A stretch of DNA of 64,000 nucleotides from positions 268,596 through 332,595 of the forward strand of contig JAHFKN010000001.1 of NCBI GenBank assembly GCA_023245355.1. Direction: 5' to 3'. Positions within the stretch are counted from its first letter, which is position 1. Each line of letters starts with the position of its first letter. Source of the stretch: Candidatus Gottesmanbacteria bacterium (GTDB taxonomy: Bacteria; Patescibacteriota; Microgenomatia; UBA10105; UBA927). Below the pieces are notes generated by a model that saw only the letters and a program-made list of their open reading frames with translations, made no database searches and was not told the origin of the DNA. The translations under genes were made by a program, and so were the position numbers. This document shows positions 36,447-64,000 of the stretch, piece by piece.

Positions 36447-36452
36447 ATGGGG

Positions 36453-37442: not shown

Positions 37443-37447
37443 GCTCT

Positions 37448-38615: not shown

Positions 38616-38641
38616 ACCGTATATTATACACGCCCGCGTGG

Positions 38642-41617
38642 TTACTTCAGTATGAGCGGTACTAACACCTGATACATTTTATCTGCAAGCTTTGCCTGGC
38701 TTTGTGGTGACGGATGCACCACATCCTGTAAATCGGAAGTATCCAACCAGGTATACGGATCGATATATGAAATACCCTTTAGAGAAGCTTCTGCCCGTAT
38801 CGCATTGCTGTATGAACGGATTTCCTGTTCAGAAAAATCCTTCCTCCGCAATAATCCGACGGCGATGATGCGCGTAGAGGGAGTTTCTTCCCGTATCCGT
38901 GACAGTAATGCCGCATAATTCGAACGGAATACATCAAGCGGAACCGTATGAGCCAGATCGTTGGTACCCATAAATATGAGCGCAATGTCGGGTTTGAATA
39001 CGCTTATATCGGTGCTGACACGAAGCAAAGCTGAATCCCATCCTGCAATCGGCGAAACGGACGAACCGAATATACCCGCATTATGAACTCTGTATCCTAA
39101 TTGCTTGGCAAGCATATACGAATAATTGTTTGGCCCGAACGAAGACGTGATCGAATCTCCTAAAATTGCCATGACCGGTTTTTCCAAATCCTCCGGAGGC
39201 ATCACGATGCTTCCTTTATCCGCCGATAATTTCCTGACACGCACATCACACGGCACCATTGCACTACTGCAGATTACCCGCGCCGTTACGGGCACCGGCT
39301 CTTTTGACGGTAACGGTATATCAAGGCGTTTGTTACTAAACGGAGATGCGAGTGTATACACTGCATCCCCGATGTGTAGCTCCAGCATCTGTTCGTCCGG
39401 CACGGTATTTACGCCATCTGCTTCAACACGCAGCATCGTCGCATTTTTCAACCGGAATGATACTTCGCTTCCCCCAAATCGGGAGCTTACCATTTGCTCT
39501 CCTGTTATCGGATGAATGAACCGCATCCACTCTGAAGAATACCGAGTGGCGGGACTATTCAACACATCGGATTCCTGAGGAAGAAAACGGTATGCACTAA
39601 ACATTATTCCTGCTAAAACGACGACCATCGCTCCCTTGCCCGCTATGTTCCTTATCCGTCTGTTTCTCATCAGGAAAAACAGCAGAAGAATCAAAAGTGC
39701 GATTCCCGTGCCCCGATACGACCATACCAGCAGTAATTCTTTGGAATACCAGACGGAAACCCTGCTCGTGTAGTTGGAATCGATTACAAAGCTATTCAGT
39801 CCATCTTTCGTTTTTCTGCTCCGGATATATGATTCACCATCCCAGAGTTTCCATGACGGGTCAAAGCTTTCGGAAAATATAAGTTCTACCGGCCGGTTAG
39901 ATGTGTTGATGTTGACCGTATACAACGTCGAACGAACGCGCTGCTCCTGCTGCCGTTCCAGATCAAAATTTTCCAATTCGCGGTAAAAATGTCCGGCGGG
40001 TTTTGCGTATTCATATACCGCAAGTCCGGTAAACTCGGGCAAACGCGTCATGTATGGCACCGTATCCAGCGCTTTCACCATGCGTTCCCGGAGCAAGGGG
40101 TCATACGACCGGTCGGTCAAAAATATCTCCCCCATCGAGTCCTCGGGGATTACAATATATTTAATGGAATACGACCGGATCAATTGTTGCGCTGACGGGT
40201 CAGTGAGTTCTGAAATAATCGCTTCCGGATCACTTGTTTTAAACACATCGCTGGCATTTATAAGCGGATGATGCTCCGACTGAAACACGAACCGCTGTCT
40301 CCAGGGAACGGCGAGTATACGGCTAAATCCCTGATCCGACACGGCCAGCTGTTCAAACCGGGTATAATCTGAAGCGACAGTCACAGTTCCGAATGTGCCT
40401 CGCACTTCGCCTTTCCAAAACGGCAGCAGTAACAGCATCCAGAAAGCCAGGAACGCCGGGAGCACATATGCCGAGTGATACTTCTTTACCTTGCCCAATA
40501 CCATTTCGATACTTCCGACGGCATAGGGCAACAGCACCGAAAACGACAGCGCCGTCAACAAATAAAATTTCGTAGGATCGCGGAATCCGCTAAACAAGGG
40601 AAGATGCGTAAACGCCCAGTTATACACCTGTCCGAACGGAGGATTTACTCCTTTTGCAAAAAACGCGCCGATCAGGGCGAGCATCACAAAAAAACGGTAC
40701 TGACCATGCTCATGCGTTTTCTCCTGACGTGTAAAAACAAGCGGAAGCATGGCAATAAACGGCAACAGCAGAAATTCCGGACGCATAAAATATGTTTTTC
40801 CGAATATATTCTCCGGCCAGTTAGGATGGAGAAGCGACAGTGTCTTGGAAAATTCCGCCCAACTTAAATATGACAGCCATCCGGGATCACCATAGCCGGC
40901 CGGCAATCCGAACGACGGAGCGGCCATAAGCGGGATAAACCAAAACAGATTTGCTGCAATGATCCAGAGAGCAGGGACTATATACATACGCGCCGTGGCT
41001 ATCCAGCGTGATGCAGGAATGCGTATTACGGCATACAACACTAGTGCGGCATAGAGAAGATATGCGTAGCGTATGTCAAAAATAATAAACGCGACGGATG
41101 CGATGGTAAAAAGCAGCGTGTTTCCGCGGATGAAACTGCCCAGCACAAACGGAGCCGCCGCATACGCCATCATAAGTCCGACCTGACCGCCGCCTGAAAT
41201 CATGAGTATGTAGGTATTCGTCATGTATACCAATGCGCCGATAGCAGCCAGCTTGCGTTCTTTTATGACCGACTTTACAAAATAATATGCTCCCGATAAT
41301 CCGAAAAATAAAAACGGCCAGAAAAACATGATGCGCATGGCAATCAGCCATGGGATATGAAAAACGGATACGAGGAGCCGGATTCCGACATGCAGGTAGC
41401 TATCAAGGTTCAGAATATGAAACGTACTCCCGCCCAACCCGTTCCCTGCCACCTCGCTCCATGCAAGCGGAAGCCAGGTAAAATCTCCGAGCCGCTGGGG
41501 ATATAAAAACGTGAAGTCGGGAGCGCTCAGTATTCCGCCTTTAAACCACCGGAGGTACACCGCTGTGACAATTCCAAGGCACGCCAATTTAACAAAAATC
41601 GGGATACGGAACTTCAT
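38642..41617 (-). CDS. Giant (991 aa) YfhO/AftD-like GT-C membrane module fused to C-terminal SGNH/GDSL hydrolase domain
   Basis: N-terminal ~560 aa polytopic. Then a periplasmic beta-rich segment with [16 protein letters not shown]...SFVIDSNY...[13 protein letters not shown] and TM (YfhO-type C-terminal signature). Then ILGDSITSS (block I), GTND (block III), DVVHPS (block V) SGNH motifs. Confidence 0.6.
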
Positions 41618-42210
41618 GGACGTTTTTTGATTTCTCTTGCCGGATTACCGACGACAATCATATATGGCTTCACGCTCTTCGTTACGACAGAGCCGGCACC
41701 GATTACCGCTCCCTTACCGATTCTGACACCGGGAAGAATGATGCAGTGCGCACCAATCCAGACATCATCTTCTATCACGACAGGAGCCGACGTGCACCCC
41801 TGCAGATTTATGGGAACATCACGCTTGGAAAAATTATGATTAAAATCCGTAATGAAGCTATATGCGGATATCTGTACGTGATTGCCTATCTCTATCAGCT
41901 TTTGAGCAGTGATAAAACAATTGTCGTCAATGAGAACGTCCGAGCCGATGCTGACATGCCCGCCGTATCCTGCATCGACACGAGTACATCTTCCGAACCG
42001 CACATTATCTCCGACGCGGATATGCTTTTTATGACTTTGAAAAAAACTATTACTGCCGCCCAAAAACACATCAGCGGACATATCAAAACCACGAAAGTTT
42101 AGTAATACTACATGTATGCGTGAGCAAATAAACTTTATCAACCATTTTGTGGCATGAAAAATAAGTTCAATGTATCCTTTTCTCGCTGTAATTTGTACGG
42201 TGCTGCTCAT
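41614..42210 (-). CDS. Left-handed beta-helix (hexapeptide) acetyltransferase
   Basis: Hexapeptide repeats [31 protein letters not shown]..., [30 protein letters not shown]. Confidence 0.7.
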
Positions 42211-42213
42211 AAA

Positions 42214-42600
42214 CTATTTGCGTAACTCTACTACCATTTTGATAAACACATACCACAACATAAAATAAACAATATTAGCTATTGAATCGACAAGGCTGCT
42301 ATTCAAACCCAGCGCAGGAATGATTGACACAACTAAAGCAACTAATATGCCAATCATAATTGTGCTATGTTTAATCGAAAAAAGCGACATCGCAATAAAT
42401 ACCAATATGAGGTGATATAAAAACGGTGAAATAAGCAGGTTGATATACGGTATTTGGATATATAACCTTAGAACAAACACTGCGACGACAAACAATTCAA
42501 GTTCGATCAAATGTTGCTTAATATAGATCCAAAGATTTTCAAAAAAAAGAAGCTGGCCGGAAAGCAATACTTGCTTGTATCTTTCTATTTTATTCTTCAT
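42214..42600 (-). CDS. Hypothetical small polytopic membrane protein (AT-rich island)
   Basis: 128 aa, 3-4 TM, no recognisable family; about 35-38% GC versus about 52% elsewhere. Confidence 0.35.
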   Translation of the reverse strand: MKNKIERYKQVLLSGQLLFFENLWIYIKQHLIELELFVVAVFVLRLYIQIPYINLLISPFLYHLILVFIAMSLFSIKHSTIMIGILVALVVSIIPALGLNSSLVDSIANIVYFMLWYVFIKMVVELRK

Positions 42601-45600
42601 ATATTTTTGCGTTTTATAACCATAAAAATGATTATTCCGATAATCCCGACGACTGTAACAAGTACGCCTTTATAGAAGAGGGACTGGGGATAAAATTCTA
42701 GTATAAGACTCTTTGCTGGCTTCTCTTTCAGATACCAGGCATTTGCATATCCATTTACCTGCATGTGCATGTTTTCCTCATATGTTGGCGGCCTCCAGCG
42801 TGTTATAACTTCCAGAATATTACCGGTTGAATCAATCGGGCTCAATCTCCACAATCCATTGTAATTTTCATTAAATACCAACACGAGGGGAAATGTTGCC
42901 CGGGAAAGATCGACGACATATTTCGTTTGATTAATCCTGGTGTAGGAAATATTCTGATGAACCTGCTTTTCACCCGTGCCGTTATGAATATATAGCGTTG
43001 GTTTGACTATTTCGTGAACGGAAACGCTATCCTTCAGAACGGTTTCTTCGTCGCCTATAGTGACACACTGGTATATATACGCCCCCGTGTCACCGTCTGA
43101 ACCGGAAAAATATCTTTCTTGTGGTGTCGATTTATAACGGCTGAAATTATACGCATAATCTGGTATAACGACATCATCGTCAATTGAAAATGTATCCGAA
43201 TTGATTTTGTTTTTTCTCAGATAAAACTGCGTGCTGGACGAAAGTGCGGAAGCGTTATTAATAACTAACCGATACGTACGCTCCCAATCAAAACCCTGTA
43301 TTTGCGATATCTGACACATCTGTTTCCGCGAATCAATTGTGACGGCCTTCCTTGTGGTTTCACTTAAAAGCGACTGGCGTTTCGGGAATATAAGTGTTAC
43401 CAACTCCTTTGGTTTCGCTTCATATGCACCCAATTCAAACCGATCTGATAGTGGATTCTTCGCAATTCCCGAAAGGTCGACAAAGCGATTCCCTATCATC
43501 ATGCCAATCGGTAAAACCCTCTTCCCGTCTGTTCCCGTGGCAAGGGTTAGCGGATCCAGATAAAATATCCCCTCAGATTTCTCATCGGGAAGCCGATAAA
43601 CCGCACGATCGTCGTAGACGTTCTTCAATGTTTCGATGCGTTTGATTACTACACCAAGTTGTTTCTGGAATAGAAGAGTCGCTGTTGTATATTTTGGACT
43701 ATTGCCAAGCATTTTATTTACAATTCGATCCTCTGACATAGCGAAGTCATATATACGCGCCACCACATCGATAGCCTCCGGAGAATCGAGGCTTGACGGC
43801 ATAAGAATCTGGACTGAATCCCACTGCTCTGTCAATTCTGCTATCACCGGTAATAATGCATCCGCGTCAACATTCCGCTCTCCAAGACTTGCCAGTTCGG
43901 AAATTCTCTTCAGCGACAAGCCTAGACGATGAGAAATTTTCGTTTCGACGGAAGCGGTATTTTCATCCGGAGTTTTTTCCCTCCATCGCTTTATGCGATA
44001 CAGGAGGGATCCAGGTAAAATACTTGTATAGCGAGGGACAATATCTGCTTCCTGCTTTTGCAACTCACATGTAAAGCAGGCTACACCGCTGATTACATCA
44101 CGTATGGGGAGCGACTCAAAAGAGGGATTAACAATAGATTTACCTACTATTTGCTGCAGAATAAAGTCTGTCGTGCCCCACAAAACGGCTCCCACCGCGT
44201 CTTTTGGCTGTCCGTTCAATTGTGTCAATCCAGAAACACTATAAATTTTATTTTTCGTGTACGTTGGAACTTGATATATCTGCCACGGTCCTTCATTCCA
44301 TACGAGAGGATATGTTTTCTTCTGTGATAACACATCTCTATACACATCAGGCGACTCACTGGGTATATCCGTGCTTTTATACGCTATATCTCCCGCCAGC
44401 AGAATATGTCTGATTTGAAAAAGCGTAAGCAGGTTACCTGCGAGTGTAGAATTACTCTGAATTTCTTTTGCGAGCCGGTTGAACATGGCTAACTGACTTT
44501 CATTAAGGTAATAAGAGTATTGAACGAATGGCTTTGGCCTTATAAGGTTAAGCGGGCTATATAAACTGAAATAATTCCAGCTAAATAATGCTGCTTTCCA
44601 TGTCGAATTAAAGCGAGGCAAAATAAGCGTTCTCCCCTCATCATCCAAATTATCCTTGCTCCATGAATCAAAAGATTCGATATAATCGGGAATCGTAAGT
44701 AACGTTGACAAATTCCTGTTGTAATAAAAAAAGCCACGCTGGAAATACGGGAAGTGATATAACAGTACCAAAACGAAAACTGCTGCAATCGCACTTGAGG
44801 AAAGTATTCTCCGTATGGCCGGACGGTAAAACGCAAAAAATTTACTTTCGGAAATTAGATAATTTATGGTAAATGAAATAAGGATTGCAAAGGAAAGCAG
44901 TAACGCAGGGATAAATTTATATTGGGCCGACCGAAAAACCACAAAACCCGGTACATAAAGCATGAAAAGCGAATATAGCCAACCCGTTGGGGGATGTGAT
45001 CCCGCGGAAAAGAAAATGCCCAATAAGGATAAACCGGTAAAATACAAAATAACTTTTTTCTGCTCAATCTGCCTGACCAAAAGCACCGCCGCATACGCAG
45101 CTGGAGCAAATAGCATACTGACAACAATCAATATTTTTTTCTGAAGAAACTGATTTGCATAAGGATGATACGGATTATCGTACCAATCCGGAAAACCCTG
45201 AAGCCGGAATAGATTGCTGACGCTCGTGTGAATGCTAACGGAATCCGTCCATTTCAGCACCGCGGCTTTTCCGCCTACAGCCTGCAACGTACTGTAATAG
45301 GTTGTTATCACATAATAGAGGAACGGAAATAACCAATAAGCATTGAGAAACAAGCTTGTTACAATCGCAACTCCTACAAATCGTGCCGATCGCTTATATA
45401 ATTCTTTTCGTTCACTCCCTGTGGCCAGAGCAATAAAATACACAAACACCATTACAAATGCAGTAAGTAAGCCCCCGAAAAGCGGAAGACTGAGGCCTCC
45501 CCCACCATTAAATAGGAATAACACTGCTGCGAGCAAAATTCCGGATCTTATCGTGTGCGACGATTTGCGCATGACACCAATACATATCATCACTGTAAGC

Positions 45601-46112
45601 GGAAGCGTGGTATATGCAGAGAATGTTGTTCCGGCGCCATACCTCCACAAAGCTAACAAATAAAAATTAAACACATACAAGAATGCTGCCAGCAAAGGGA
45701 ACCACCTATAACGGAAAATGTCACGCAGGGAAAATGCGAGCATATACATCCCGACTTGCATGGCAAAAAACCAAAACACAAACGTCACCCGCTCTGAGTC
45801 AGCTACCGATAGACCTATCCTGCTTGCCGCTGCCTGTATGGATAATATCGGAATCACGCTTATACTTGTGGTATTATCCAATCCGAAACTATCCTGACTA
45901 TTCCACGTAAAAAATCTGTTTTTATACGCCTCAATGACATTTATCGGATATCCCGAATCGTGTCCTGTTAGTATTTGACCATTCGGAATCCACAACAGCG
46001 GTATACAAGAAATAAATCCAATCACCACGATGTCGAATAATCTCGGAAGCGATTTTAAGAAAAATCTAGTCATATATTTTCTCGTTATAAACAAGCAGCA
46101 AACATCATACAC
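42597..46112 (-). CDS. Giant (1171 aa) AftD/YfhO-like GT-C membrane glycosyltransferase with large extracytoplasmic domain and C-terminal TM anchor
   Basis: N-terminal ~430 aa with about 12 TM. Then ~650 aa soluble region. C-terminal signature LVLVFNENYNGLWRL...NGYANAWYL...LEFYPQSLFYKG followed by a TM helix - the pattern seen in DUF3367/AftD and YfhO proteins. Markedly AT-rich. Confidence 0.55.
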   Translation of the reverse strand: MYDVCCLFITRKYMTRFFLKSLPRLFDIVVIGFISCIPLLWIPNGQILTGHDSGYPINVIEAYKNRFFTWNSQDSFGLDNTTSISVIPILSIQAAASRIGLSVADSERVTFVFWFFAMQVGMYMLAFSLRDIFRYRWFPLLAAFLYVFNFYLLALWRYGAGTTFSAYTTLPLTVMICIGVMRKSSHTIRSGILLAAVLFLFNGGGGLSLPLFGGLLTAFVMVFVYFIALATGSERKELYKRSARFVGVAIVTSLFLNAYWLFPFLYYVITTYYSTLQAVGGKAAVLKWTDSVSIHTSVSNLFRLQGFPDWYDNPYHPYANQFLQKKILIVVSMLFAPAAYAAVLLVRQIEQKKVILYFTGLSLLGIFFSAGSHPPTGWLYSLFMLYVPGFVVFRSAQYKFIPALLLSFAILISFTINYLISESKFFAFYRPAIRRILSSSAIAAVFVLVLLYHFPYFQRGFFYYNRNLSTLLTIPDYIESFDSWSKDNLDDEGRTLILPRFNSTWKAALFSWNYFSLYSPLNLIRPKPFVQYSYYLNESQLAMFNRLAKEIQSNSTLAGNLLTLFQIRHILLAGDIAYKSTDIPSESPDVYRDVLSQKKTYPLVWNEGPWQIYQVPTYTKNKIYSVSGLTQLNGQPKDAVGAVLWGTTDFILQQIVGKSIVNPSFESLPIRDVISGVACFTCELQKQEADIVPRYTSILPGSLLYRIKRWREKTPDENTASVETKISHRLGLSLKRISELASLGERNVDADALLPVIAELTEQWDSVQILMPSSLDSPEAIDVVARIYDFAMSEDRIVNKMLGNSPKYTTATLLFQKQLGVVIKRIETLKNVYDDRAVYRLPDEKSEGIFYLDPLTLATGTDGKRVLPIGMMIGNRFVDLSGIAKNPLSDRFELGAYEAKPKELVTLIFPKRQSLLSETTRKAVTIDSRKQMCQISQIQGFDWERTYRLVINNASALSSSTQFYLRKNKINSDTFSIDDDVVIPDYAYNFSRYKSTPQERYFSGSDGDTGAYIYQCVTIGDEETVLKDSVSVHEIVKPTLYIHNGTGEKQVHQNISYTRINQTKYVVDLSRATFPLVLVFNENYNGLWRLSPIDSTGNILEVITRWRPPTYEENMHMQVNGYANAWYLKEKPAKSLILEFYPQSLFYKGVLVTVVGIIGIIIFMVIKRKNI

Positions 46113-47412
46113 TCATCCTAGATGCATTACTATGACGGTGCTTCTGCATCTCATTAAACGCCCTAGTAAATTGTTGCTCCCACGTATTAGTACGAGCTAT
46201 TCTAATGGCTTCTTTACGCATACGCATATATGTTTGAGCATCGGATAACACCATTAATATTGCATTAGCGAAACTTTGTTCATCGTCATTCGCGAGTATT
46301 GCTGCACCTTGATCCGCCATTTCTTTGCCAAGAGGAGGAACCTTTGAACTGATAATAGGCAATCCCGCAGCACAATATGCTCGTATTTTTCCAGCATCTC
46401 CGTAATACCGCGGTGAGCCGGATATCGACCGGTACGGAGCAACAGCTATTGCACAAGACGTCATAATTTTAGACATTCTCGTTGCGTCGGGAATAAAACC
46501 ATGAAATATAACGGCCTCAATCTGATGATAATCCCGTATGATCGGCCGTAACCAGGCAAAAGTTTTTTCCGTTCCCCCTATAATATGGAGTGTTGCATCT
46601 TTAAATTTCTTCCTCACGAGTGCCAAAGCCCGTATTGCCACGTCAGGACCGTTTTCTGGTCCTAACGTGCCCATAAAAACAATGGAGTTAGGTATGACTT
46701 TGTTAAGAGGATTCACATGTATTTGGGACGGAAATAATCCGTTTGCAACATGAATAACCGGTGCCGCGCTATAACGGTTTAATCCTGCCTTGATACGCGC
46801 CGGATGTATCGCGCGGGAAACATCCCAGATATAATCTGCATGTTTTGCGCTGAATCGGTCGAATATCAGATACAGCGAATTGAACCACCTGTTCTTATAT
46901 CTGTTCGGTGAATAATCCGAAACGTAGTAGATCACCTTTTTCACTCTTCCTAACCTACGCAACATGATACCCGCCAATGTGTTGATACTTTCCAGACCGA
47001 TAAAATAATCGAATTGCGTTTTATCCCTGAGCGTCCAATCCATAATCGAAAGGAAGTCCCGTATCTTAAAAGAAATATGCGTGCCGTTGGTATTCCGTAA
47101 ATACAAAATGGGCTTAAGAAGCAGAAACCACCAGGAAGGTTTATACGGAATAAACTCGTGCTTTTTGTAGTAATACACTTCGATTTTGTGAAGTACGTCT
47201 TCACTGCTGGGAACAAGCTGGTCGATAAGCACCAGTTTTTTTATCCTCGGAACCAAAAAATCGCGAAGCGGTTCGACACTGCCGTTGGTCGGCATACGCT
47301 TACCGTTTGCCCATAAGGAAAATGTAGCAAACAATACAGACGTGTCTTTTGTAAGCCCGAGGTTAGCGTTTTTCATTCTTGATCCGTGCCCTCGCCTCTT
47401 CAACCATCGCAC
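46105..47412 (-). CDS. GT4-family glycosyltransferase with N-terminal extension
   Basis: C-terminal GT-B motifs AIAVAPYRSISGSPRYYGDAGKIRAYCAAGLPIIS; about 45% GC. Confidence 0.7.
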   Translation of the reverse strand: MRWLKRRGHGSRMKNANLGLTKDTSVLFATFSLWANGKRMPTNGSVEPLRDFLVPRIKKLVLIDQLVPSSEDVLHKIEVYYYKKHEFIPYKPSWWFLLLKPILYLRNTNGTHISFKIRDFLSIMDWTLRDKTQFDYFIGLESINTLAGIMLRRLGRVKKVIYYVSDYSPNRYKNRWFNSLYLIFDRFSAKHADYIWDVSRAIHPARIKAGLNRYSAAPVIHVANGLFPSQIHVNPLNKVIPNSIVFMGTLGPENGPDVAIRALALVRKKFKDATLHIIGGTEKTFAWLRPIIRDYHQIEAVIFHGFIPDATRMSKIMTSCAIAVAPYRSISGSPRYYGDAGKIRAYCAAGLPIISSKVPPLGKEMADQGAAILANDDEQSFANAILMVLSDAQTYMRMRKEAIRIARTNTWEQQFTRAFNEMQKHRHSNASRMSV

Positions 47413-48184
47413 GGATCCCGTCCCGAAGCTCGATAGTGGGTAACCACCCTGGGATACGTCCCCGGTTAGGTGAAGCTATAGGGTCATGACCGGTTTTGCT
47501 GCCCGGAACCACGACGGCTCCGGTAAAATCGGCAATCATGTTAGCGACATCGATGATCTGAGCCCATTCATAACTGCTGGCATCATACACGGTTTTCCGC
47601 AGCCCCTTGGAATGAAGCGCCATGTGAAATGCATTGGACAAATCCGTGATGTGAGTGAATTGCCGCCACTCGGCGCCGCTGGTCATCATGGTAATTTTTT
47701 TCGTTTTAAGGGCCTGGTAGATGAAGTCCGAAATCACATGGCTTTTCACATCTTCTCCCTCCATATACCCATACGCATTCCACACCCGCACGCATTTACC
47801 TCCCAAAAGGTCTGTCCACACCTCGCCCAGCCGTTTGGTCACTCCGTAGACCGTATCCACTTCTTCAGAAAGCTGGCTGGACACAAAAAGGAACGGTTTT
47901 TTGGCTTTTTCCAGCTGATCAAACACGTTTTTCATAAGAGCCAAATTCCAGTCAAGCTGATTTTTCTGAAGCTTCGGTTCGTAAAGATACTTGCTGCCTC
48001 CCACATCCCACGCGAGAAAATAGACGGCATCAGCCTTTGCCAACGGAAGTTGTGCTATCCGCGCATCTTCTTTTTCCGTACGCTTTATATCGAAACGGAT
48101 TACCGCTTCCCCTTTCGCTTCGAGGAACGCACAAAACGGCGTGCCGATAAATCCTTCTGAACCGATAACCAGATTTGTATTCAT
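47363..48184 (-). CDS. NAD(P)-dependent epimerase/reductase, short extended-SDR family
   Basis: VIGSEGFIGTPF Rossmann motif, YGVTK catalytic YxxxK; 273 aa. Confidence 0.65.
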   Translation of the reverse strand: MNTNLVIGSEGFIGTPFCAFLEAKGEAVIRFDIKRTEKEDARIAQLPLAKADAVYFLAWDVGGSKYLYEPKLQKNQLDWNLALMKNVFDQLEKAKKPFLFVSSQLSEEVDTVYGVTKRLGEVWTDLLGGKCVRVWNAYGYMEGEDVKSHVISDFIYQALKTKKITMMTSGAEWRQFTHITDLSNAFHMALHSKGLRKTVYDASSYEWAQIIDVANMIADFTGAVVVPGSKTGHDPIASPNRGRIPGWLPTIELRDGIRAMVEEARARIKNEKR

Positions 48185-49194
48185 TTGTCTTTACGTTTCA
48201 GTCTGACCTGTTCTTCTATCCATGCATATGTTTTGGAAAGACCGTCATATAGTTTGCTCGTTGGTTCCCATCCGAGTTTTTTCCGGATAAGGCGGTTATC
48301 AGAAGACCTGCCGCGTACGCCCAGCGGGCCTTTCACGTGCTTAATCGTAAGCGACTTGCCTGCAATATCCATCACCATTTCCGCCAGTTTGTTTATACTC
48401 ACCATTTCTTCTGATCCGATATTTACCGGACCGGAGAATGTACTGCTCATCAGTCTCCGTACGCCCTCCAGACACTCGTCAATATAAAGATATGAACGCG
48501 TCTGTTTGCCGTCTCCCCACATTTCCATACTCCCTCCGTCTTTGGCCTGAGCTACCTTGCGACAGATAGCTGCCGGTGACTTTTCTTTGCCATTATTCCA
48601 GCTTCCTTCCGGACCGAATATATTATGGAACCGCGCGATATGAACCTCGAGGCCGTAATTCTTTGCATACGCCTGATACATGCGTTCACCAAATATCTTT
48701 TCCCACCCATACTCGCTGTCTGGAGCAGCCGGATATGCGGAGGATTCCTCCAAATTAGGATTATTCGGGTCCAGCTGATTGTGCTCCGGATAAATACATG
48801 CGGAAGAAGAAAAGAAAATCTTTTTAATTTTTGCCAATCTTCCGAAATGGAGCGCGTTGAGGTTAATCTGCGCGGAATTATGCATCACATCTGCATCATG
48901 CTCACCGGTAAAAATATACCCTGCCCCTCCCATATCGGCTGCCAGCTGATATACCTCATCATACGGGCGGTCGAACACTTTTTGACAGAATTTCTGATCA
49001 CGCAAGTCACCCACAATAAATTCATCAGCGGGAGATTTGCTGTACTCATGCCGTTTGATATCGACTCCGCGCACCCAATAGCCTTCTTTTTTCAGACGCT
49101 TCACGAGGTGCCCGCCGATAAACCCGCCGGCACCCAATACCAATGCGTTCTTTATGCTTTTCTGCTTAGTCTTCATAATGTATGTATTTGTCAA
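48181..49194 (-). CDS. GDP-mannose 3,5-epimerase (GME)-like
   Basis: Matches my recollection of plant GME over most of its length: ADMGGAGYI, SSSACIYPE, YGWEKI, RFHNIFGPEGSWNNGKEKSPAAICRKV, MWGDGKQTRSYLYIDECLEGVRRL, PVNIGSEEMVSINKLAEMV, GVRGRSSDN. Distinct from Fcl/GMER. Confidence 0.8.
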   Translation of the reverse strand: MTNTYIMKTKQKSIKNALVLGAGGFIGGHLVKRLKKEGYWVRGVDIKRHEYSKSPADEFIVGDLRDQKFCQKVFDRPYDEVYQLAADMGGAGYIFTGEHDADVMHNSAQINLNALHFGRLAKIKKIFFSSSACIYPEHNQLDPNNPNLEESSAYPAAPDSEYGWEKIFGERMYQAYAKNYGLEVHIARFHNIFGPEGSWNNGKEKSPAAICRKVAQAKDGGSMEMWGDGKQTRSYLYIDECLEGVRRLMSSTFSGPVNIGSEEMVSINKLAEMVMDIAGKSLTIKHVKGPLGVRGRSSDNRLIRKKLGWEPTSKLYDGLSKTYAWIEEQVRLKRKDK

Positions 49195-49245
49195 TACTAT
49201 GGAGTTTCTGCAAAATCGTCAACTCATTCCTATTGGAAATTATAA
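49195..49245 (-). promoter_or_regulatory. Candidate internal promoter upstream of GME gene
   Basis: AT-rich 51 bp gap; minus strand TTGACG - 17 nt - TAGTAT. Confidence 0.3.
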
Positions 49246-49812
49246 TTAACCACTTTTAACTCTTTGAGCAGGTATGCCGACGTACACTCCCGGACGTAAA
49301 ATGTCCTTTGTTACAACCGCATTTGCGCCAATGGTAACATTATTTGTTATTGTTAATTTTCCTTTCGCAATAATCTTTGCGCCTGCTCCAATCTGAAAAT
49401 TGTCTCCAATAACAATATTAAAGTTGTTTGTTTTAAAACCTGTTCCTATGGTTACCTGCCCCATGATTGAAGAATTTTTTCCAATCACGGTATTATCGGT
49501 TATTACGATTGATCTGTTATGTAAAAAAAGCCCTCCGTTTATAGTCACTTGTGGTTCAATATGATAATCCAGAATATAATATGTGAAACAAAAATATGCC
49601 GGGTATAATAAATACCCCATTAGCCGAAATATGATAAAAGAATTAAATAATAAATATCGCTCCGCCCGATACCATAACGAAAAATGCATACCCGGACTAT
49701 GGAAAATAACCGCCAACTTATACCAAAGTGGTGCTCGCGTATCGATAAAATACCGCGAAATATCATCTCGTAATTGATCCAAACTATCTTTCAAGGAAAC
49801 AGAACTTGTCAT
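49246..49812 (-). CDS. CysE/WcaB-like hexapeptide O-acetyltransferase
   Basis: C-terminal IVITDNTVIGKNSSIMGQVTIGTG...VIGDNFQIGAGAKIIAKGKLTITNNVTIGANAVVTKD. The listed ORF 49246..50475 extends spuriously upstream; start set at MTSSVSLKD. Confidence 0.65.
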   Translation of the reverse strand: MTSSVSLKDSLDQLRDDISRYFIDTRAPLWYKLAVIFHSPGMHFSLWYRAERYLLFNSFIIFRLMGYLLYPAYFCFTYYILDYHIEPQVTINGGLFLHNRSIVITDNTVIGKNSSIMGQVTIGTGFKTNNFNIVIGDNFQIGAGAKIIAKGKLTITNNVTIGANAVVTKDILRPGVYVGIPAQRVKSG

Positions 49813-49819
49813 AACGGTT

Positions 49820-50608
49820 TTATATTTTCTTAAGTACGGCATGGAACCGGGTAGCATACCGCATATCCTTATCCAGGGTATCAATGAGTAAACCTCCAGT
49901 GTTGGTAATAAAAAATATAAACGGTGCAAACGGAAAAAGAAGTAGCTTAACCAGCCAGTTTTTCTCCATAATTTTCCGTATGACAAACTGATTGGTACCT
50001 GCGGCCATGGAGGTGCCGAAAAACGACCGCGTGTTGATGGAAACGGCGCGTAATCCGTGTTTCTTACCGAGCAAGGTAAGGCACGATTTGGTGTACCGGA
50101 AGTAATCAAATCCCGTTCCTTCGCTGTGTTCCCGGTAATAGTACGGAACGGAAATGATGCAGTGCCCTCCCTTCTTGAGGACGCGCGACGCTTCGGAAAA
50201 AAACGTGTCGGGATCAGATATATGTTCCAATACTTCAAACGAGCAGTAGGTGTCAAACGAACCGGTCTTAAACGGAAGATTGAGGGCATCCGCAACCTGA
50301 TCAACCGAGCTTTTTGTTTTCTGTTTCCCGAAAAGATACGACGACAACACACCCAATACGCTCGTGCGGTTATTGTACCGCACAAATATATCATCCCAGG
50401 ATGAATAATCAGTCGCAAGATATGATGTAATCCGTTTTCCCGCGGCCCTAAGAATCCGTTCCTTATTTTCCCCATTCCCGCATCCTGTTTCTATCACCTT
50501 TCCTTTTATATACCGTTGCATATCGGCATTCCCTAGCGCCATTTGACGAAATTCCAGCCAGTGGGGGTAAAACGGCGTGCCGGATATAAAAAATTGAAGG
50601 ATATTCAT
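49820..50608 (-). CDS. Class I SAM-dependent methyltransferase
   Basis: VIETGCGNGE motif I, FDTYCSFEVLEHI post-II. Confidence 0.75.
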   Translation of the reverse strand: MNILQFFISGTPFYPHWLEFRQMALGNADMQRYIKGKVIETGCGNGENKERILRAAGKRITSYLATDYSSWDDIFVRYNNRTSVLGVLSSYLFGKQKTKSSVDQVADALNLPFKTGSFDTYCSFEVLEHISDPDTFFSEASRVLKKGGHCIISVPYYYREHSEGTGFDYFRYTKSCLTLLGKKHGLRAVSINTRSFFGTSMAAGTNQFVIRKIMEKNWLVKLLLFPFAPFIFFITNTGGLLIDTLDKDMRYATRFHAVLKKI

Positions 50609-50613
50609 GCTGC

Positions 50614-51510
50614 TTACCGCAATAATTTCACGATCGTATCTGTCACATTATACCGCGGTTTCCATGCATAATCATGCATCAATTTGCTGCTATCGGCTTT
50701 CAGGGCGCGGACAAACCCTTTTGCTTCGGCTACATGTGATATGTGAAGTTTGTTTTGGCCGACGCTACGGAATATGTCGGCAAGTTCAGTAAGGGTCAGC
50801 ATTTCTCCTGATGAAACATTGTAAATCGTATCCTGCCAATCCCCGGAAAGCACGGATACAATGGCACTGACCAGATCTTCTACATGAATAAAATCCCTGA
50901 TTTGTTTTCCGTCGCCGGTTATGGAGATAGATCCATTCTTTCTGTATGAATCCGCCATGGTGGTAATCGCTCCCGCTTTGGCATCCTCACCGTAAATATT
51001 CGTCGGCCGGAGGATAGTGTATTTCATGGAGTAAGTGGCGGCAGAGTATTTCAATACCTGCTCTCCGAGGAGTTTAGACATCGCATACCCGGTCGTGGGA
51101 TTCGGATTATCTTTTTCCGTAGGTAATGAATTAATGGCCAGATCGCCGTAAACTGCCGCGGCGGAAATATGGATGACGCGCTTGACGCCGGCTTTGCCGG
51201 CGGACTCAAACAGTTCCATGGGAGTTACAACGTTTGTCTCAAGTTGTTCACGTAGCGGCGGGTCAAACCGGCCGATGAGGTTGATAAACACTTGGGCATC
51301 TTTGAAAAATTCAGCCAATCCCTCACCGGTCTGAATGTTTCCCTTTACGTACGAAACACCGGCAATGTTAGATACCTGGTCATCCCGGACAAGAACGCGG
51401 GGTGAAATCCCGGTTTGTACAAGTGCCAGGATCAGGTGACTGCCGACAAAGCCGCTGCCGCCTGCAATTGAAACATGCATATAAACTTCAGAGAAGCCCT
51501 TCTTTGGCAA
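50614..51510 (-). CDS. NAD-dependent epimerase/reductase (extended SDR)
   Basis: VSIAGGSGFVGSH, YAMSK YxxxK; adjacent to PseB/CapE-like dehydratase, so possibly the 4-keto reductase/epimerase partner. Confidence 0.7.
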   Translation of the reverse strand: MPKKGFSEVYMHVSIAGGSGFVGSHLILALVQTGISPRVLVRDDQVSNIAGVSYVKGNIQTGEGLAEFFKDAQVFINLIGRFDPPLREQLETNVVTPMELFESAGKAGVKRVIHISAAAVYGDLAINSLPTEKDNPNPTTGYAMSKLLGEQVLKYSAATYSMKYTILRPTNIYGEDAKAGAITTMADSYRKNGSISITGDGKQIRDFIHVEDLVSAIVSVLSGDWQDTIYNVSSGEMLTLTELADIFRSVGQNKLHISHVAEAKGFVRALKADSSKLMHDYAWKPRYNVTDTIVKLLR

Positions 51511-52495
51511 TCATTGCTTTAAGCGTAGCCACAGGTATCCGGTTGGTCGTATTGGAAGCATATACCAACGGACCGATACGCTTCATCTTCCCGTATTTTT
51601 TCGTAACTGCGGGTAAGGAAATCTGCGGAAGAATTACATAATAATCATCCATTTCTACCGCCCGGAGCGATTCGGATTCACTGATTAACACTTCATGAAT
51701 TTTTTCTCCCGGCCTGATACCGGTTACTTTGATATTCCTTTTCTGTGCGGGAATGCGTTCCAACATGATATCCAGAATATCCTGCACGGTATGTGCCGGC
51801 ATTTTTTTCACAAATACTTCACCGCCGACACCCTCGGTAAGCGCCTGCATAACCAGCGCTACGCTGTCGGAAAGTGTCATGACAAACCGGGTCATGGTAG
51901 GATCCGTAACCGTAATCGGCTTTCCGGAATCTATAAGCAAGCGGAATAACGGTACAACTGAGCCGCGGGATCCCAGGACATTTCCGTAGCGGGTAGATAC
52001 AAAGCTGATTTTTGTTTCATTGGTATATAGGTTTGCCGTAGTGATAAGCCGCTCCTGCAGGGCTTTTGTCATGCCGTATGCATTAATCGGGTCGACCGCT
52101 TTATCCGTTGAAAGCGCCACTACCTTTTCTACTCCCTCGTCACGCGCTGCGTCGATAATATTCTGGGCACCCGTAATATTTGTCTGAATTCCCTGCCACA
52201 CGTTATATTCCACCTGGGGAATCCACTTAAGGGCCGCCGCATGAACGACGATATCAACACCGCGCATGGCGTTGCGGACACTGCGGTAATCGCGCACGTC
52301 ACCGAGTATATACCGGATATTTTCGTTGCCTAAGTCAAGCTCCATTGCCCCATGCTTATTTTCATCGCGGCTGAACACGATAACCTCTGATGGTTCGTAC
52401 TCCATCAATTTCGCGACAAACATCTTGCCGAATGAACCTGTGCCGCCCGTTACGAGAATACGTTTTCCATGAAATATCGTTTTCATATTGACCAC
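51488..52495 (-). CDS. UDP-N-acetylglucosamine 4,6-dehydratase (PseB/CapE/FnlA family)
   Basis: KRILVTGGTGSFG, FSRDENK, ALSTDKAVDPINAYGMTK, RYGNVLGSRGSVVPLF, TDPTMTRF, GIRPGEKIHEVLI - near-collinear with PseB/CapE. Confidence 0.85.
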   Translation of the reverse strand: MVNMKTIFHGKRILVTGGTGSFGKMFVAKLMEYEPSEVIVFSRDENKHGAMELDLGNENIRYILGDVRDYRSVRNAMRGVDIVVHAAALKWIPQVEYNVWQGIQTNITGAQNIIDAARDEGVEKVVALSTDKAVDPINAYGMTKALQERLITTANLYTNETKISFVSTRYGNVLGSRGSVVPLFRLLIDSGKPITVTDPTMTRFVMTLSDSVALVMQALTEGVGGEVFVKKMPAHTVQDILDIMLERIPAQKRNIKVTGIRPGEKIHEVLISESESLRAVEMDDYYVILPQISLPAVTKKYGKMKRIGPLVYASNTTNRIPVATLKAMIAKEGLL

Positions 52496-52498
52496 ATA

Positions 52499-53632
52499 TT
52501 ACACGGTTATGCCCATGGCTTTCAATGGCTTACGCACCATGCGCTCAAATGAATATGCCCGTGCAGCCTGCACGGCGCGTTCTCTCATAGCCGGATATTT
52601 TCCGGTATATACGGAATCTATCGCACGTACAAAATCAGAAACTGCAGGACGTATAACGACGCCGCAGCGGAATTCGCGTATGACATCAGACGTTGAGACG
52701 ACACCCGTAGTCACGACGGGCAGACCGGCGGCGAGGTATTCGCGGATCTTCATGGAATCGCCGTACCGCGTCCACGGATCTTTATCTATATATAGCGCAA
52801 GGCCTATGCCTGCGGTAGAAAGAAACTCGTGCACTTTTTCGCGACATAGTGGTCCGTGAAGTACAACAGTTTTTTTCCTCTGCCAGCGCGTAATTTCATT
52901 TTTTATGGCTTTCGGAAAATTAAGTTCGCCGATGATGTGCAGCCGTATATCCGGATATTTTTTCGTGAGGGGCACCAGTGCATCCAGTACAACTTCGTAA
53001 TTTAAAGACGTCGTTGACGTACCGACGATGACCATCCAATGCGCATGATGCGCATCCTTACCCTCATGCACTCCGACCGGAGCATTCGGAACGAAATAAT
53101 TTTTCTCTTTGGAAACTCCCTGTGTTACGCGGTGCTCGAAAATACGCGTCGAGACATTCCACACCTGATCGGCATGACGGATACAAAATCTGTCAATGCA
53201 ATGATATATGCCGTTGAGCAGTCTGTTTCCGAACCGTGAATCAGCATAATCCGCCGTATAGTAAATCACTCTGTTAACCAGACCGGCGTACCTGCCTACA
53301 ATTCCCCAAAGGGCGTTAAGCGGATCTATCCCGATATACAAAGAAACTTTTCCGGTTTTTACAAGCGCGGTCAACACAATGTATGCCTCGATTAGTGTAC
53401 GGAGTGGTAGTAACGCCGGAGTTTTTTGCATCTGGTACCGCTGAACACCGGAAGACGCATACTGCTCGTGCAAAATTCTGTATGTGCCGTAAATCGGAAA
53501 ATGAAGAACAGTAAACGGGATTTTTTTGGAGGAAAGCAAATCGAACAATGACGCCCCCGTCCCGCTCACCGCCTTCCCATCGCCCAAAAACAACGAGTGG
53601 ATCGCGATAAGAATCGTTTTATGTTCAGCCAT
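52499..53632 (-). CDS. GT4-family glycosyltransferase
   Basis: GT-B C-domain: LHIIGELNF...REYLAAGLPVVTT. Confidence 0.75.
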   Translation of the reverse strand: MAEHKTILIAIHSLFLGDGKAVSGTGASLFDLLSSKKIPFTVLHFPIYGTYRILHEQYASSGVQRYQMQKTPALLPLRTLIEAYIVLTALVKTGKVSLYIGIDPLNALWGIVGRYAGLVNRVIYYTADYADSRFGNRLLNGIYHCIDRFCIRHADQVWNVSTRIFEHRVTQGVSKEKNYFVPNAPVGVHEGKDAHHAHWMVIVGTSTTSLNYEVVLDALVPLTKKYPDIRLHIIGELNFPKAIKNEITRWQRKKTVVLHGPLCREKVHEFLSTAGIGLALYIDKDPWTRYGDSMKIREYLAAGLPVVTTGVVSTSDVIREFRCGVVIRPAVSDFVRAIDSVYTGKYPAMRERAVQAARAYSFERMVRKPLKAMGITV

Positions 53633-53671
53633 ATAAACGGAATCAGGTCAGCGCATGCCTAATATGCGCGT

Positions 53672-54607
53672 CTACTTCTGATGAAAAGAAACGTACCACT
53701 CTATCGTTTTTCTAAGCCCGGCTTCCAGCGTGACTTTCGGCGACCATCCCAACACCTGTTTTGCCTTTAACCAGCTCACCTCCTGTTTATCCAGCTCGTT
53801 TTGTCGGCCGTCAGGGGTTTTGTGTATGGCAGAACGTTTTCCCATCAGCAGAATAATGGTCTCAATCATTTTTTTGGCAGTGACGGAATTGCCGGTCGCG
53901 AAATTAAATATCCTGTTGCGCTCGATCTGCGCATCGGATATTTTACCCAACAGATCGTACGCGCGGAGCGCGTCATCTATATACAGATAATCGCGTTTTG
54001 CTCCCCCTCCCCATAATGTCGGCTGTTTTCCCTGAAGCAATGAGCTGACAGTTTTCGGCACGATACGGGAGGAGTTCATGTCTCCCGGACCGTAAATATT
54101 TACAAACCGCGGAATAAGAACCGGTAATTCATACGTGTCGGCATACGATTGCGCTATCAGATCCGCGCATGTTTTGGACGTTTCATACGGCCGCGACGGC
54201 CGCGCAGGTTCATCTTCCTTATACGGAAACGGTGAATTTCCGTATACATGAACCGTCGAAGCCATAACAATTCTGGAAACTTTGGTGTTTCTGCATGCTT
54301 CCAATACATTGAGCGCACTTTCGATATTATTATGAAACGTATGATAGGGATCGGATTGACCCGATTCCACAAGCGCTTCGCTTGCGAGGTGAAAGAACGC
54401 ATCAGGCCTGAATGTATCCACAACGGAAAAAAGCTTCTTTCTGTCTGTAAGGTCTACGGAGACGTGATGGTCGGACGTTTTTTTACCGCGGACAATACCC
54501 AATACCTGTGCGTGACGCTTCTCAAAATATGTAAGCAGGTGGCTGCCGATAAATCCTCCGGATCCGGTAATGAGAACGCGCTTATTTGCCCAGGATGTAA
54601 TTTGCAT
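53672..54607 (-). CDS. NDP-sugar 4,6-dehydratase-like SDR (closest to CDP-glucose 4,6-dehydratase RfbG pattern)
   Basis: KRVLITGSGGFIGSHL, FHLAS, PYETSKTCADLI (versus PYSNSKGCAELV in RfbG), NIYGPGDMNSSRIVP. Confidence 0.55.
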   Translation of the reverse strand: MQITSWANKRVLITGSGGFIGSHLLTYFEKRHAQVLGIVRGKKTSDHHVSVDLTDRKKLFSVVDTFRPDAFFHLASEALVESGQSDPYHTFHNNIESALNVLEACRNTKVSRIVMASTVHVYGNSPFPYKEDEPARPSRPYETSKTCADLIAQSYADTYELPVLIPRFVNIYGPGDMNSSRIVPKTVSSLLQGKQPTLWGGGAKRDYLYIDDALRAYDLLGKISDAQIERNRIFNFATGNSVTAKKMIETIILLMGKRSAIHKTPDGRQNELDKQEVSWLKAKQVLGWSPKVTLEAGLRKTIEWYVSFHQK

Positions 54608-55634
54608 ACGAGGAGATTCGCCGATGTATTATGACAAATCCGTACAGAATTACAAGGCTAAAACACATAAGGGGGTTGAGAAACCACGCAAAATCCCTAA
54701 TCCGGATAAACCCGCGGACCGCATCTATAAACGGTACCACAACAGTGAGACTCAACAGTACAAACCGCATGGTCGGGAAAAAATCACCTTTTTCGTACAG
54801 GCTGTACCGTCGTTTACCTCCGCTCATAAAATGATATTTCTCCATAAACAGTTTTCTCCGCCGGAGGTAATCCCATATCCCCCGTTCGTCCGTTTTATGA
54901 TGAAGGGAATCTTTTATAAATGCATATCTGTTATACCCTTTGCGGATCAGATCGACATTTACGTCGATATGGAAAAACTCGTCCGGGCTGGTTTTTGCGT
55001 GTGCAAACAATACACTGCGCCGTATCATAAACCCGTTGGAACCGAGCGTGGGTATACCGTTTTTCGCAAAATCTACGGAAAAATATGAACCTTTATCCGT
55101 AACGTTCGCACGCCTGAATACTCCGTACGAAGAAGGGTCGTCATAAAAATATGCCATCCGGTCGGCTTTCCCGACGTAGAAAGCGAAAATATCATTTGCA
55201 CCGAACAACGAAAAATATCTGCCGATAAACGAATCACCGGGATTGTAGAAATAATGAAGCGTTTCAACGCCTACCATAGATGCATCGTCCTGAAACGGCC
55301 GCACCATCGCCTGCATCCATTTGGAATGCGGCAATACATTATCATGATCGACGAATAATATGATATCGTGCTTTGCTTTCCGCGCGCCGACCGCCCGGTT
55401 GTATTCTGCTCCCTGCTTATCTTTAGGAACATGCAAAACGGCAGCATGAAACCTGCGTGCTACCTCAAATGTTTTATCTCGTGACCCTCCGTCTGCCAGA
55501 ATAATTTCAATACGGTCTTTGGGGTACTCCTGCGTCCGTATACTTTCCAGACACTCCGTTAACGTTTTTGCAGAATTATATGTAGCAATGACGACGGAAA
55601 TTGTGGGGTAAGCTGATTTCATATTGTTATGTGA
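54582..55634 (-). CDS. GT2-family glycosyltransferase with C-terminal TM segments
   Basis: PTISVVIATYNSAKTLTECLESI...ILADGGSRD, DHDNV DxD; hydrophobic C-terminus. Confidence 0.75.
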   Translation of the reverse strand, partial: SHNNMKSAYPTISVVIATYNSAKTLTECLESIRTQEYPKDRIEIILADGGSRDKTFEVARRFHAAVLHVPKDKQGAEYNRAVGARKAKHDIILFVDHDNVLPHSKWMQAMVRPFQDDASMVGVETLHYFYNPGDSFIGRYFSLFGANDIFAFYVGKADRMAYFYDDPSSYGVFRRANVTDKGSYFSVDFAKNGIPTLGSNGFMIRRSVLFAHAKTSPDEFFHIDVNVDLIRKGYNRYAFIKDSLHHKTDERGIWDYLRRRKLFMEKYHFMSGGKRRYSLYEKGDFFPTMRFVLLSLTVVVPFIDAVRGFIRIRDFAWFLNPLMCFSLVILYGFVIIHRRISSYANYILGK

Positions 55635-56772: not shown

Positions 56773-57541
56773 CGATCAGCGACGTCCCAAATGGTAAAGG
56801 GACAATTTTGGAAAAAAACATGTCGAGGGCAAATGACTGTTCCAGCAGGCGGTTAAGTATTCCCGGAGGCTGCCAAACAACTTTTTTGAGTATGGGCATC
56901 ACATCTTTGGAAGTGTTACCGGATTTAGACAGCATGAACCGCTTCATGATCAGGTGAGGAATATACTGGAAAAATCCGAAATATGAAATTGAGCGGATCC
57001 TGAAACCTCCGGCGGTAAGTACCTCAACAAGCGACCTCTTCGTGTACCGGCGTTTGTGACCGGAAATATCATCGTAAACAGACCACAACTCCGGCCTGGC
57101 AGGAACGGTAATGTAGAGTATGCCGGCTTTACCGATGAGCCGCGAACACTCTTGGATGGCTTGCTTGTCGTTTGGAATATGCTCCAGTACGTCAAACATA
57201 CCTACTGCATCAAAAAGCTTTTTGGGCCTGAACTGATCTAATTTTCCGGCAAAAAAAGACGCAGAAGGTACTCTTTGCCTGGCATATGCCAATCCCTCTT
57301 CGTGCATGTCTAACCCGGTTACCCTAAATCCTATCCGTGCCAATTCCGCCAGCACATACCCGGTTCCGCATCCCACTTCCAGAAAACTCTTCCCCTGATA
57401 CGAATGAAGTGACGACCGGATAATTTCGCGGATAACCATATTTCTGCCCCGGAACCAAAAGTGCTTTTTTTCACTTTCCGCAAGCAGTGCATAAGCCTCC
57501 GCAGGATAATCATGAAGCGACGCGGTGTTGTGAGATTTCAT
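56750..57541 (-). CDS. Class I SAM-dependent methyltransferase
   Basis: FLEVGCGTGY motif I, FDAVGMFDVLEHI. Confidence 0.75.
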   Translation of the reverse strand: MKSHNTASLHDYPAEAYALLAESEKKHFWFRGRNMVIREIIRSSLHSYQGKSFLEVGCGTGYVLAELARIGFRVTGLDMHEEGLAYARQRVPSASFFAGKLDQFRPKKLFDAVGMFDVLEHIPNDKQAIQECSRLIGKAGILYITVPARPELWSVYDDISGHKRRYTKRSLVEVLTAGGFRIRSISYFGFFQYIPHLIMKRFMLSKSGNTSKDVMPILKKVVWQPPGILNRLLEQSFALDMFFSKIVPLPFGTSLIVAAQKAV

Positions 57542-57547
57542 GGGGCA

Positions 57548-58576: not shown

Positions 58577-58581
58577 ATGTG

Positions 58582-61322: not shown

Positions 61323-61336
61323 AATATTCCTTGCAA

Positions 61337-63936: not shown

Positions 63937-64000
63937 AGGTACCTTTTAAGCAGAGTAAACGGCCGCAGTATTTTTTTCCGGAACCGGATACAGATATATA

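Follow-up and report, generated by a model that had tools for sequence, protein, structure and literature searches.

A predicted GDP-mannose 3,5-epimerase, translationally coupled to an undescribed NDP-sugar dehydrogenase/reductase, in the envelope-glycan region of a candidate phyla radiation bacterium

Analysis of a 64,000-nucleotide stretch of contig JAHFKN010000001.1 (the whole stretch, positions 1..64000, is called the window below) led to an open reading frame (ORF) whose sequence identifies it as a clear orthologue of GDP-mannose 3,5-epimerase (GME, also named GM35E). The gene is followed by a coupled partner gene and a glycosyltransferase gene, and shares a large glycan region with a possible supplier of its substrate. 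The features on which the argument rests are the following, with protein lengths in amino acids (aa):

48181..49176, minus strand: GME (GM35E) orthologue, 331 aa from the ATG at 49176
47363..48184, minus strand: SDR2, an extended short-chain dehydrogenase/reductase (SDR) of the NDP-sugar type, 273 aa; its ATG overlaps the GME stop codon (ATGA)
46105..47376, minus strand: GT4-family glycosyltransferase, 423 aa (435 aa from an upstream GTG)
23195..24280, minus strand: ManC (GMP), monofunctional mannose-1-phosphate guanylyltransferase without a PMI domain, 361 aa
22532..63936, minus strand: envelope-glycan biosynthesis region, lying wholly on this strand

The longest reading of the GME gene (48181..49194, minus strand) opens at the first in-frame TTG, at 49194, and gives 337 aa, while the ATG at 49176 (MKTKQKS...) lies 18 nt 3' of that codon. 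Public gene calls for an identical protein (P0001, 331 aa) start at this ATG, and it also fits the length of the homologues (330-334 aa), so that ATG 49176 is most likely the true start. Residue numbers below nevertheless follow the 337-aa, TTG-start numbering. A preliminary description of this DNA had reported the ORF from the TTG and quoted peptides from it; SSSACIYPE, RFHNIFGPEGSWNNGKEKSPAAICRK and MWGDGKQTRSYLYIDECLEGVRRL are indeed contained in it, and only the start has been moved. Two ORFs on the plus strand (48185..48487 and 48625..49245) overlap GME, are without support and were taken as shadows.

A phmmer search against the Protein Data Bank (PDB) returned the GMEs of Arabidopsis and Myrciaria dubia as the five best matches (334-338 bits, E = 1e-98 to 4e-100). 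The top match, 2c59_A (338 bits, E = 4.1e-100), is collinear with the query (residues 18-333 against 33-345 of the chain), and the identity with the Arabidopsis enzyme (AtGME) is 50.8% over 311 aligned positions. The preliminary description had called the protein a GME homologue, nearly collinear with the plant enzyme, and both statements hold: the characterised GMEs are best by a wide margin, with UDP-xylose synthase (UXS) as the next PDB family at 105 bits and GDP-fucose synthase (Fcl) at no more than 90 bits. Concerning the domain databases, Pfam detected generic extended-SDR families alone, namely Epimerase PF01370 (E = 5e-44, full length) and GDP_Man_Dehyd, the top-scoring NCBIfam match was Fcl, and the public name is 'NAD-dependent epimerase/dehydratase family protein'. 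On these grounds the protein could be an Fcl (also known as GMER or WcaG), a GMD or some other SDR merely resembling GME. The NCBIfam scores, however, stay below the cut-offs, with 113 against 500 bits for Fcl (NF047922), 20.6 against 415 for GMD (TIGR01472) and 77 against 262 for GalE. The 23 NCBIfam matches listed all fell short of their cut-offs and included no GM35E model; the family thus appears to have no model in NCBIfam. The best named relatives belong to Gottesmanbacteria UBA5942 and UBA6580 (86-88% identity), and some homologues of ~80% identity are named GDP-D-mannose 3',5'-epimerase by JGI. The activity of the protein, its substrate, the ratio of its products and the fate of the sugar are inferred.

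The residues that define GM35E have been reviewed (PMC8787198, 2022). In AtGME they comprise the S143/Y174/K178 triad, the C145/K217 acid-base pair, R306, which acidifies the catalytic Cys, R243, which binds the diphosphate, and the conserved N203; GMER/Fcl differs by a Cys/His pair and by a Lys as the Cys-acidifying residue (PMC8787198). HMMER alignment to AtGME showed that all eight are identical in the window GME. The triad, [ST]xnYx3K, is formed by S131, Y162 and K166 (S143, Y174 and K178 in AtGME), the acid-base pair by C133 and K205 (C145 and K217), with a Lys and not the His of GMER, and R296, R233 and N191 align with R306, R243 and N203. The Gly-rich NAD+ motif reads GAGGFIG (residues 21-27). 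The eight residues are invariant (86 of 86 sequences) when AtGME is aligned with homologues taken from 80 species genomes and with additional relatives. The AlphaFold2 (AF2) model of GME, built from a shallow alignment (pLDDT 77, pTM 0.81), was compared with known structures by Foldseek: GME crystal structures occupy ranks 1 to 14 (E ~1e-33, TM 0.80-0.85, 44-48% identity), the family after them reaches E = 5e-22 with 23% identity, and no Fcl structure occurs among the top 50 matches.

Both in sequence and in structure, the protein is closer to characterised GMEs than to other NDP-sugar SDRs. GMER/Fcl/WcaG is, like GME, an extended SDR of the same superfamily that acts on a GDP-hexose and performs 3,5-epimerisation with a catalytic Cys, but it works with Cys/His plus Lys, uses NADPH and takes a 4-keto-6-deoxy substrate from GMD, whereas the window protein carries Cys/Lys plus the Arg acidifier. 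The catalytic Cys and Lys singled out in the preliminary description are both retained, as is R296, and neither PDB scores nor NCBIfam nor Foldseek place the protein within Fcl or another SDR clade, an outcome that by the same description would have counted against GME. An identity as Fcl/GMER, GMD or a generic GalE is extremely improbable, and was ruled out by the model scores together with the discriminating residues.

Compared with the plant enzymes, the window GME is collinear over its full length with AtGME (2C54, 2C59, 2C5A, 2C5E) and Myrciaria dubia GME (8SG0, 8SKB) and has the same fold; with AtGME it shares the triad, the Cys/Lys pair, the acidifying and diphosphate Arg residues and the Asn. 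It differs in its shorter ends, the extensions at the N- and C-terminus of the plant proteins being absent (331 aa versus 377 aa in AtGME), and in its canonical GxxGxxG motif, where AtGME has GxxGxxA. Additionally, it is established in a glycan cluster and coupled to SDR2, whereas plant GME belongs to the ascorbate pathway.

The coupled partner, SDR2, gives a weak match to Pfam Epimerase and a best PDB match of 33 bits. Its family counts 844 members at E ≤ 1e-5; these bear generic product names, and the few informative source labels are Patescibacteria. The sequence contains GSEGFIG, D32, S103, Y113 and K117, and GSxGxxG and these four residues are invariant in the family alignment, together with WRQF and NxGR motifs. 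An Asp of the D32 type is typical of NAD binding. Profile-profile alignment with the GME family (probability 99.2%, 26% identity) matches K147 to the Lys base of GME, R174 to the diphosphate Arg and R243 to R296, and the LAWDVGG of SDR2 to the LAADMGG of the GME family (the LA-x-D-x-GG wall motif), while a deletion of ~21 residues takes out the loop with the catalytic Cys. The AF2 model (pLDDT 90) has the NDP-sugar SDR fold. By its sequence, SDR2 is classed here as an NAD-type NDP-sugar SDR. Profile and Foldseek comparisons put it at equal distance (35-41 bits, ~20% identity) from UXS, UDP-GlcA 4-epimerase, Mth375, GalE, GME and GMER, with TM values of 0.7-0.8 that are alike across all NDP-sugar SDRs; because of this equidistance, homology does not reveal its reaction or substrate.

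Several assignments of SDR2 were considered. Fold and profile yielded a generic NDP-sugar SDR fold alone, with several families equally near. The family alignment speaks against a 4,6-dehydratase, as S-S-Q-L follows the catalytic Ser instead of the acidic pair that we take to be the motif of those enzymes. The GDP-L-galactose mutase MtdL was rejected, being a GT75 enzyme rather than an SDR (PMC9937993). As for the archaeal GDP-sugar 4-epimerases, of which the promiscuous PhGal4E_1 accepts GDP-L-galactose (PMC12171764), the profile scores of SDR2 against them (PhGal4E_1; 8RDG/8RDH, 3EHE, 3AW9) are weak at 28-37 bits and no better than those against UXS, UDP-GlcA 4-epimerase or GME. In addition, SDR2 is the smaller protein by ~40 residues, it alone has lost residues between the catalytic Ser and Tyr, and it constitutes a family of its own seen mainly in Patescibacteria.

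In every complete locus of the nearest GME clade (n = 15: L001-L006, L008, L010, L011, L013, L014, L018, L031, L053 and L057), SDR2 comes directly after GME, at a distance of 0-37 nt. Of two SDR2 members of 60-62% identity taken as starting points, P0240 again has GME immediately upstream, and P0238 has in that position a gene of the Epimerase family (329 aa), putatively a GME. In the window the GT4 gene overlaps the end of SDR2, and in most related loci such a gene comes next after the pair. The translational coupling of GME to SDR2, a previously undescribed NDP-sugar SDR, in a clade of the candidate phyla radiation (CPR) is the new observation of this work.

These data raise the possibility that the physiological unit is the GME-SDR2 pair, in which GME would deliver GDP-L-galactose, GDP-L-gulose or a 4-keto intermediate, SDR2 would convert it to a rarer GDP-L-hexose, for example by epimerisation at C4 or C2, and GT4 would transfer the product. 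The ATGA overlap, the presence of the pair in 15 of 15 complete loci and with the 60-62%-identity SDR2 members, and the usual position of GT4 directly downstream all favour it, as do the features retained by SDR2 (the Gly-rich motif, D32, Ser/Tyr/Lys, the diphosphate Arg, LA-x-D-x-GG and a fold modelled at pLDDT 90) and the precedent of PhGal4E_1 acting on GDP-L-galactose (PMC12171764). On the other hand, SDR2 stands equally far from UDP-GlcA 4-epimerase, UXS, Mth375 and GME and its substrate may be some unrelated nucleotide sugar that goes into the same glycan; moreover, GME works without it in other phyla, and the GMEs of Bacteroidota, Acidobacteriota and others have no SDR2 beside them. We regard this proposal as tentative, a possibility to be reckoned with rather than the expected outcome. 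Its extension, that a GME-SDR2-GT4 module makes and installs in the envelope a rare L-hexose that is neither L-galactose nor L-gulose (e.g., L-glucose, L-allose, L-talose or L-idose), is doubtful. If true, GM35E would be followed in these ultra-small host-dependent bacteria by a pathway step new to nucleotide-sugar metabolism.

Concerning the supply of substrate, the preliminary description had supposed a ManC-like gene in the same cluster, and a full-length one was located 24 kb downstream of GME, on the same strand and in the same glycan region of ~40 kb. Its product consists of the NTP_transferase and ManC beta-helix domains (Pfam) and matches the GMP of T. maritima (2x5s) over the full length (query 1-352 against chain 2-332, E = 1e-44). 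The bifunctional model TIGR01479 scores 226 bits, below its cut-off, and its match stops at position 350 of 467 (from position 2), which is consistent with the missing PMI (isomerase) domain. Supply of GDP-mannose from within the glycan region is therefore plausible. The GT4 protein, which follows GME and SDR2 in most related loci, is for that reason a candidate transferase for the product of the cassette.

From homology, catalytic residues, fold, gene context and conserved synteny, the following route can be proposed. GDP-mannose made by ManC would be the substrate of GME, in which Tyr162, Lys166 and Ser131, with a tightly held NAD+, would bring about a transient oxidation of GDP-alpha-D-mannose at C4. 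At C5 and C3, protons would then be taken off and returned by Cys133 and Lys205 acting from opposite sides, the pKa of the catalytic Cys being lowered by Arg296, and re-reduction of the 4-keto group would lead to an equilibrium of GDP-mannose, GDP-beta-L-galactose and GDP-beta-L-gulose. This unfavourable equilibrium would be pulled by the coupled SDR2 and GT4, through direct transfer or after further modification, and the L-hexose would enter the lipid-linked glycan made by the surrounding genes and end in an envelope glycan or glycoconjugate. That L-hexoses reach the envelope glycan is a reasonable inference.

A different destination is offered by the literature, in which GME is the committed step of plant ascorbate synthesis, and scattered reports of vitamin C synthesis in prokaryotes exist (PMC9602106), so that GME might feed a bacterial pathway of the Smirnoff-Wheeler type and not a glycan. 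No GDP-L-galactose phosphorylase, L-galactose dehydrogenase or aldonolactone oxidase was found in the 64-kb window, though, and GME is embedded in, and translationally coupled to, genes of glycan assembly. An ascorbate role is very improbable, and it was rejected for want of the downstream pathway genes in the window.

Taken as a whole, we assign a probability of about 85% to the reading that the gene encodes a functional bacterial GDP-mannose 3,5-epimerase (EC 5.1.3.18) providing an L-hexose for the envelope glycan. The closest precedent is MfGM35E of Methylacidiphilum fumariolicum (I0K0X9), the first characterised bacterial GM35E, which is 50.5% identical to AtGME (Gevaert et al., 2019; PMC6678494). 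It adjoins glycosyltransferase and methyltransferase genes, which points to a role in an envelope glycan as for the window GME; it differs in coming from Verrucomicrobiota and not Patescibacteria, and an SDR2-type partner has not been reported for it. MfGM35E and the window GME show a like identity to AtGME (50.5% and 50.8%) and have the same catalytic residues. Some points speak against the assignment. In the AF2 model the active-site loops 82-91 and 126-150 have pLDDT <50, owing to the shallow alignment. The conserved and coupled SDR2 suggests that the sugar finally made in the cell may be something other than the plain products of GM35E, possibly a further-modified L-hexose. Moreover, some members of the GME family are fused to a UDP-Glc/GDP-Man dehydrogenase, which implies that not every member need use GDP-mannose itself.

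The same fusions can be read in favour of a GM35E-like enzyme with a single or biased epimerisation (e.g., at C5, giving mainly GDP-L-gulose, as proposed for BlmG) or with a GDP-mannose derivative such as GDP-mannuronate as substrate. The possibility of single 3- or 5-epimerases in the family has been raised in the literature (PMC8787198), and BlmG of bleomycin biosynthesis, 42% identical to AtGME, is linked to L-gulose. Yet the acid/base residues and all pocket residues tested are identical to those of AtGME, to which the window GME is nearer (50.8%) than BlmG is, and the 64-kb window has no dehydrogenase of the UDPG_MGDP_dh family. We consider a biased or differently fed enzyme unlikely here, and the assignment as a GDP-mannose 3,5-epimerase is retained in what follows.

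In the preliminary description GME was held to be rare in bacteria, a view that does not withstand the searches made here. A word-indexed search at E ≤ 1e-20 gave at least 8,000 clusters at 90% identity (the top 120 being 76-100% identical), and among 1.84 billion representatives at 50% identity, searched exhaustively, 1,023 had E ≤ 1e-30, the 150th best of them still with 257 bits and 41-44% identity. A pattern scan of one genome per species, limited in that its six peptide patterns derive from this single GME protein, confirmed GME in 144 species genomes of Patescibacteria, Bacteroidota (Crocinitomicaceae, Saprospiraceae), Acidobacteriota, Desulfobacterota, Nitrospirota, Ignavibacteriota and DPANN archaea, including the cultured species Desulfobulbus rhabdoformis and Rosettibacter primus. 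By contrast, just 18 bacterial UniProt entries bore the GM35E name in 2019 (PMC6678494), and even a homologue of 88% identity (P0010) is named 'NAD-dependent epimerase/dehydratase family protein'. The seeming rarity is an artefact of annotation: Pfam sees only generic Epimerase and GDP_Man_Dehyd domains and NCBIfam apparently has no GM35E model, so that thousands of homologues are labelled generically. Roles of GM35E in the bleomycin and A201A pathways are known from the literature.

Members of the family also occur in other arrangements. The distant member P0241 (665 aa) combines GME with a NodZ-like domain of the GT23 fucosyltransferase type. Transferases of this type use GDP-beta-L-sugars, and the fusion is consistent with such use in the GME family. 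In P0244 and P0312 an N-terminal UDP-Glc/GDP-Man dehydrogenase precedes a C-terminal GME-like domain, which hints at epimerisation of GDP-uronates in other lineages. Another distant member, P0249, carries a LAGLIDADG intein, and P0243 and P0250 have N-terminal regions of ~440 aa without Pfam match. In the related contig L087 (3053-4023 and 8402-8822), GME is split into calls of 92 aa and 230 aa, by a frameshift or an assembly error, and a gene of GT11, the alpha-1,2-fucosyltransferase family of the GDP-beta-L-sugar type, lies near it. Finally, several of the nearest relatives (L007, L009, L012, L018, L056 and P0392) come from metagenome-assembled genomes labelled 'uncultured Gammaproteobacteria' or 'Planctomycetes', yet their GME, SDR2 and neighbouring genes share 85-91% identity with Patescibacteria sequences, so that mislabelling or chimerism of the bins is probable.

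Apart from the genes already described, the glycan region comprises an initiating Bac_transf, at least 13 glycosyltransferases (GT2, GT4), a PMT-like GT-C, a flippase-like Polysacc_synt_3, two methyltransferases, four hexapeptide acyltransferases, GalE, a PseB/FnlA-like dehydratase and four further SDRs, as well as one GDSL-domain protein and several large proteins without Pfam match. The remaining features referred to here are:

49246..49620, minus strand: hexapeptide-repeat acyltransferase (Hexa124), 124 aa, a called gene in an identical public contig
49820..50608, minus strand: methyltransferase, 262 aa
42597..46112, minus strand: large protein, 1171 aa, no Pfam match
30075..33263, minus strand: large protein, 1062 aa, no Pfam match
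62392..63936, minus strand: large protein, 514 aa, no Pfam match
38642..41617, minus strand: GDSL protein, 991 aa, whose sole Pfam domain is a C-terminal GDSL lipase/acylhydrolase
747..17042, minus strand: peptidoglycan and cell-division cluster with FemAB-family, Mur ligase, MurA-like (EPSP-synthase family), MurB, penicillin-binding protein transpeptidase and MraW genes
18357..19733, minus strand: glycyl-tRNA synthetase (GlyRS) gene

Upstream of GME, a mechanical ORF of 409 aa (49246..50475) is an artefact, as the called gene in the identical public contig is its C-terminal 124 aa alone; the methyltransferase gene overlapping it is the real upstream gene. Just beyond, at 50614..52495, the gene of a PseB/FnlA-like UDP-GlcNAc 4,6-dehydratase (353 bits, slightly short of the 408 set for PseB) overlaps that of a reductase-like SDR of 298 aa, and this pair suggests a second pathway, for a 6-deoxy-hexosamine, serving the same glycan. 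Relatives of the 1171-aa and GDSL proteins recur beside the GME cassette in related CPR loci. The cluster at 747..17042 additionally contains a GlmU-like NTP-transferase/hexapeptide protein and a DegT-type aminotransferase.

With regard to base composition, the GC content of GME (0.474) and SDR2 (0.496) is close to that of the window (0.489), while it is lower in the upstream Hexa124 (0.352), GT4 in its 435-aa form (0.437), the 1171-aa protein (0.420), a 128-aa ORF (0.331) and Hexa198 (0.439). A low-GC patch (41614..47412 and 49246..49620) thus flanks the GME-SDR2 pair, suggesting that this part of the glycan locus is variable or has been exchanged. For GME itself, composition gives no support to a recent horizontal transfer, as GME and SDR2 match the window and the neighbours alone are low. 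At the cassette, consensus matches to a dedicated promoter or terminator were no commoner than in shuffled sequence. The minus strand carries all substantial ORFs of the window, cumulative GC skew declines monotonically over the 64 kb, and no tRNA genes were found in it. Relatives occur on contigs of ~1.0-1.3 Mb. The best labelled relatives of GlyRS are from Gottesmanbacteria (81%), Woesebacteria (76%) and also Patescibacteria; the host of GME is a Microgenomates-type, Gottesmanbacteria-like CPR bacterium.

Bacterial GM35E is already known, has been characterised once and is widespread; what is unusual here is the coupled SDR2 in a CPR lineage. Judged by the sequence of the gene described, the candidate phyla radiation gains a well-supported GM35E. 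A genome of ~1 Mb would thus still spend part of its capacity on L-hexose chemistry at the surface, which bears on how an episymbiont presents itself to hosts and phages. Apart from the organism, the GM35E family offers a large untapped pool of variants for biocatalysis, as called for in the 2022 review (PMC8787198), and the conserved SDR2 is a lead to a possible new enzyme modifying GDP-L-sugars.

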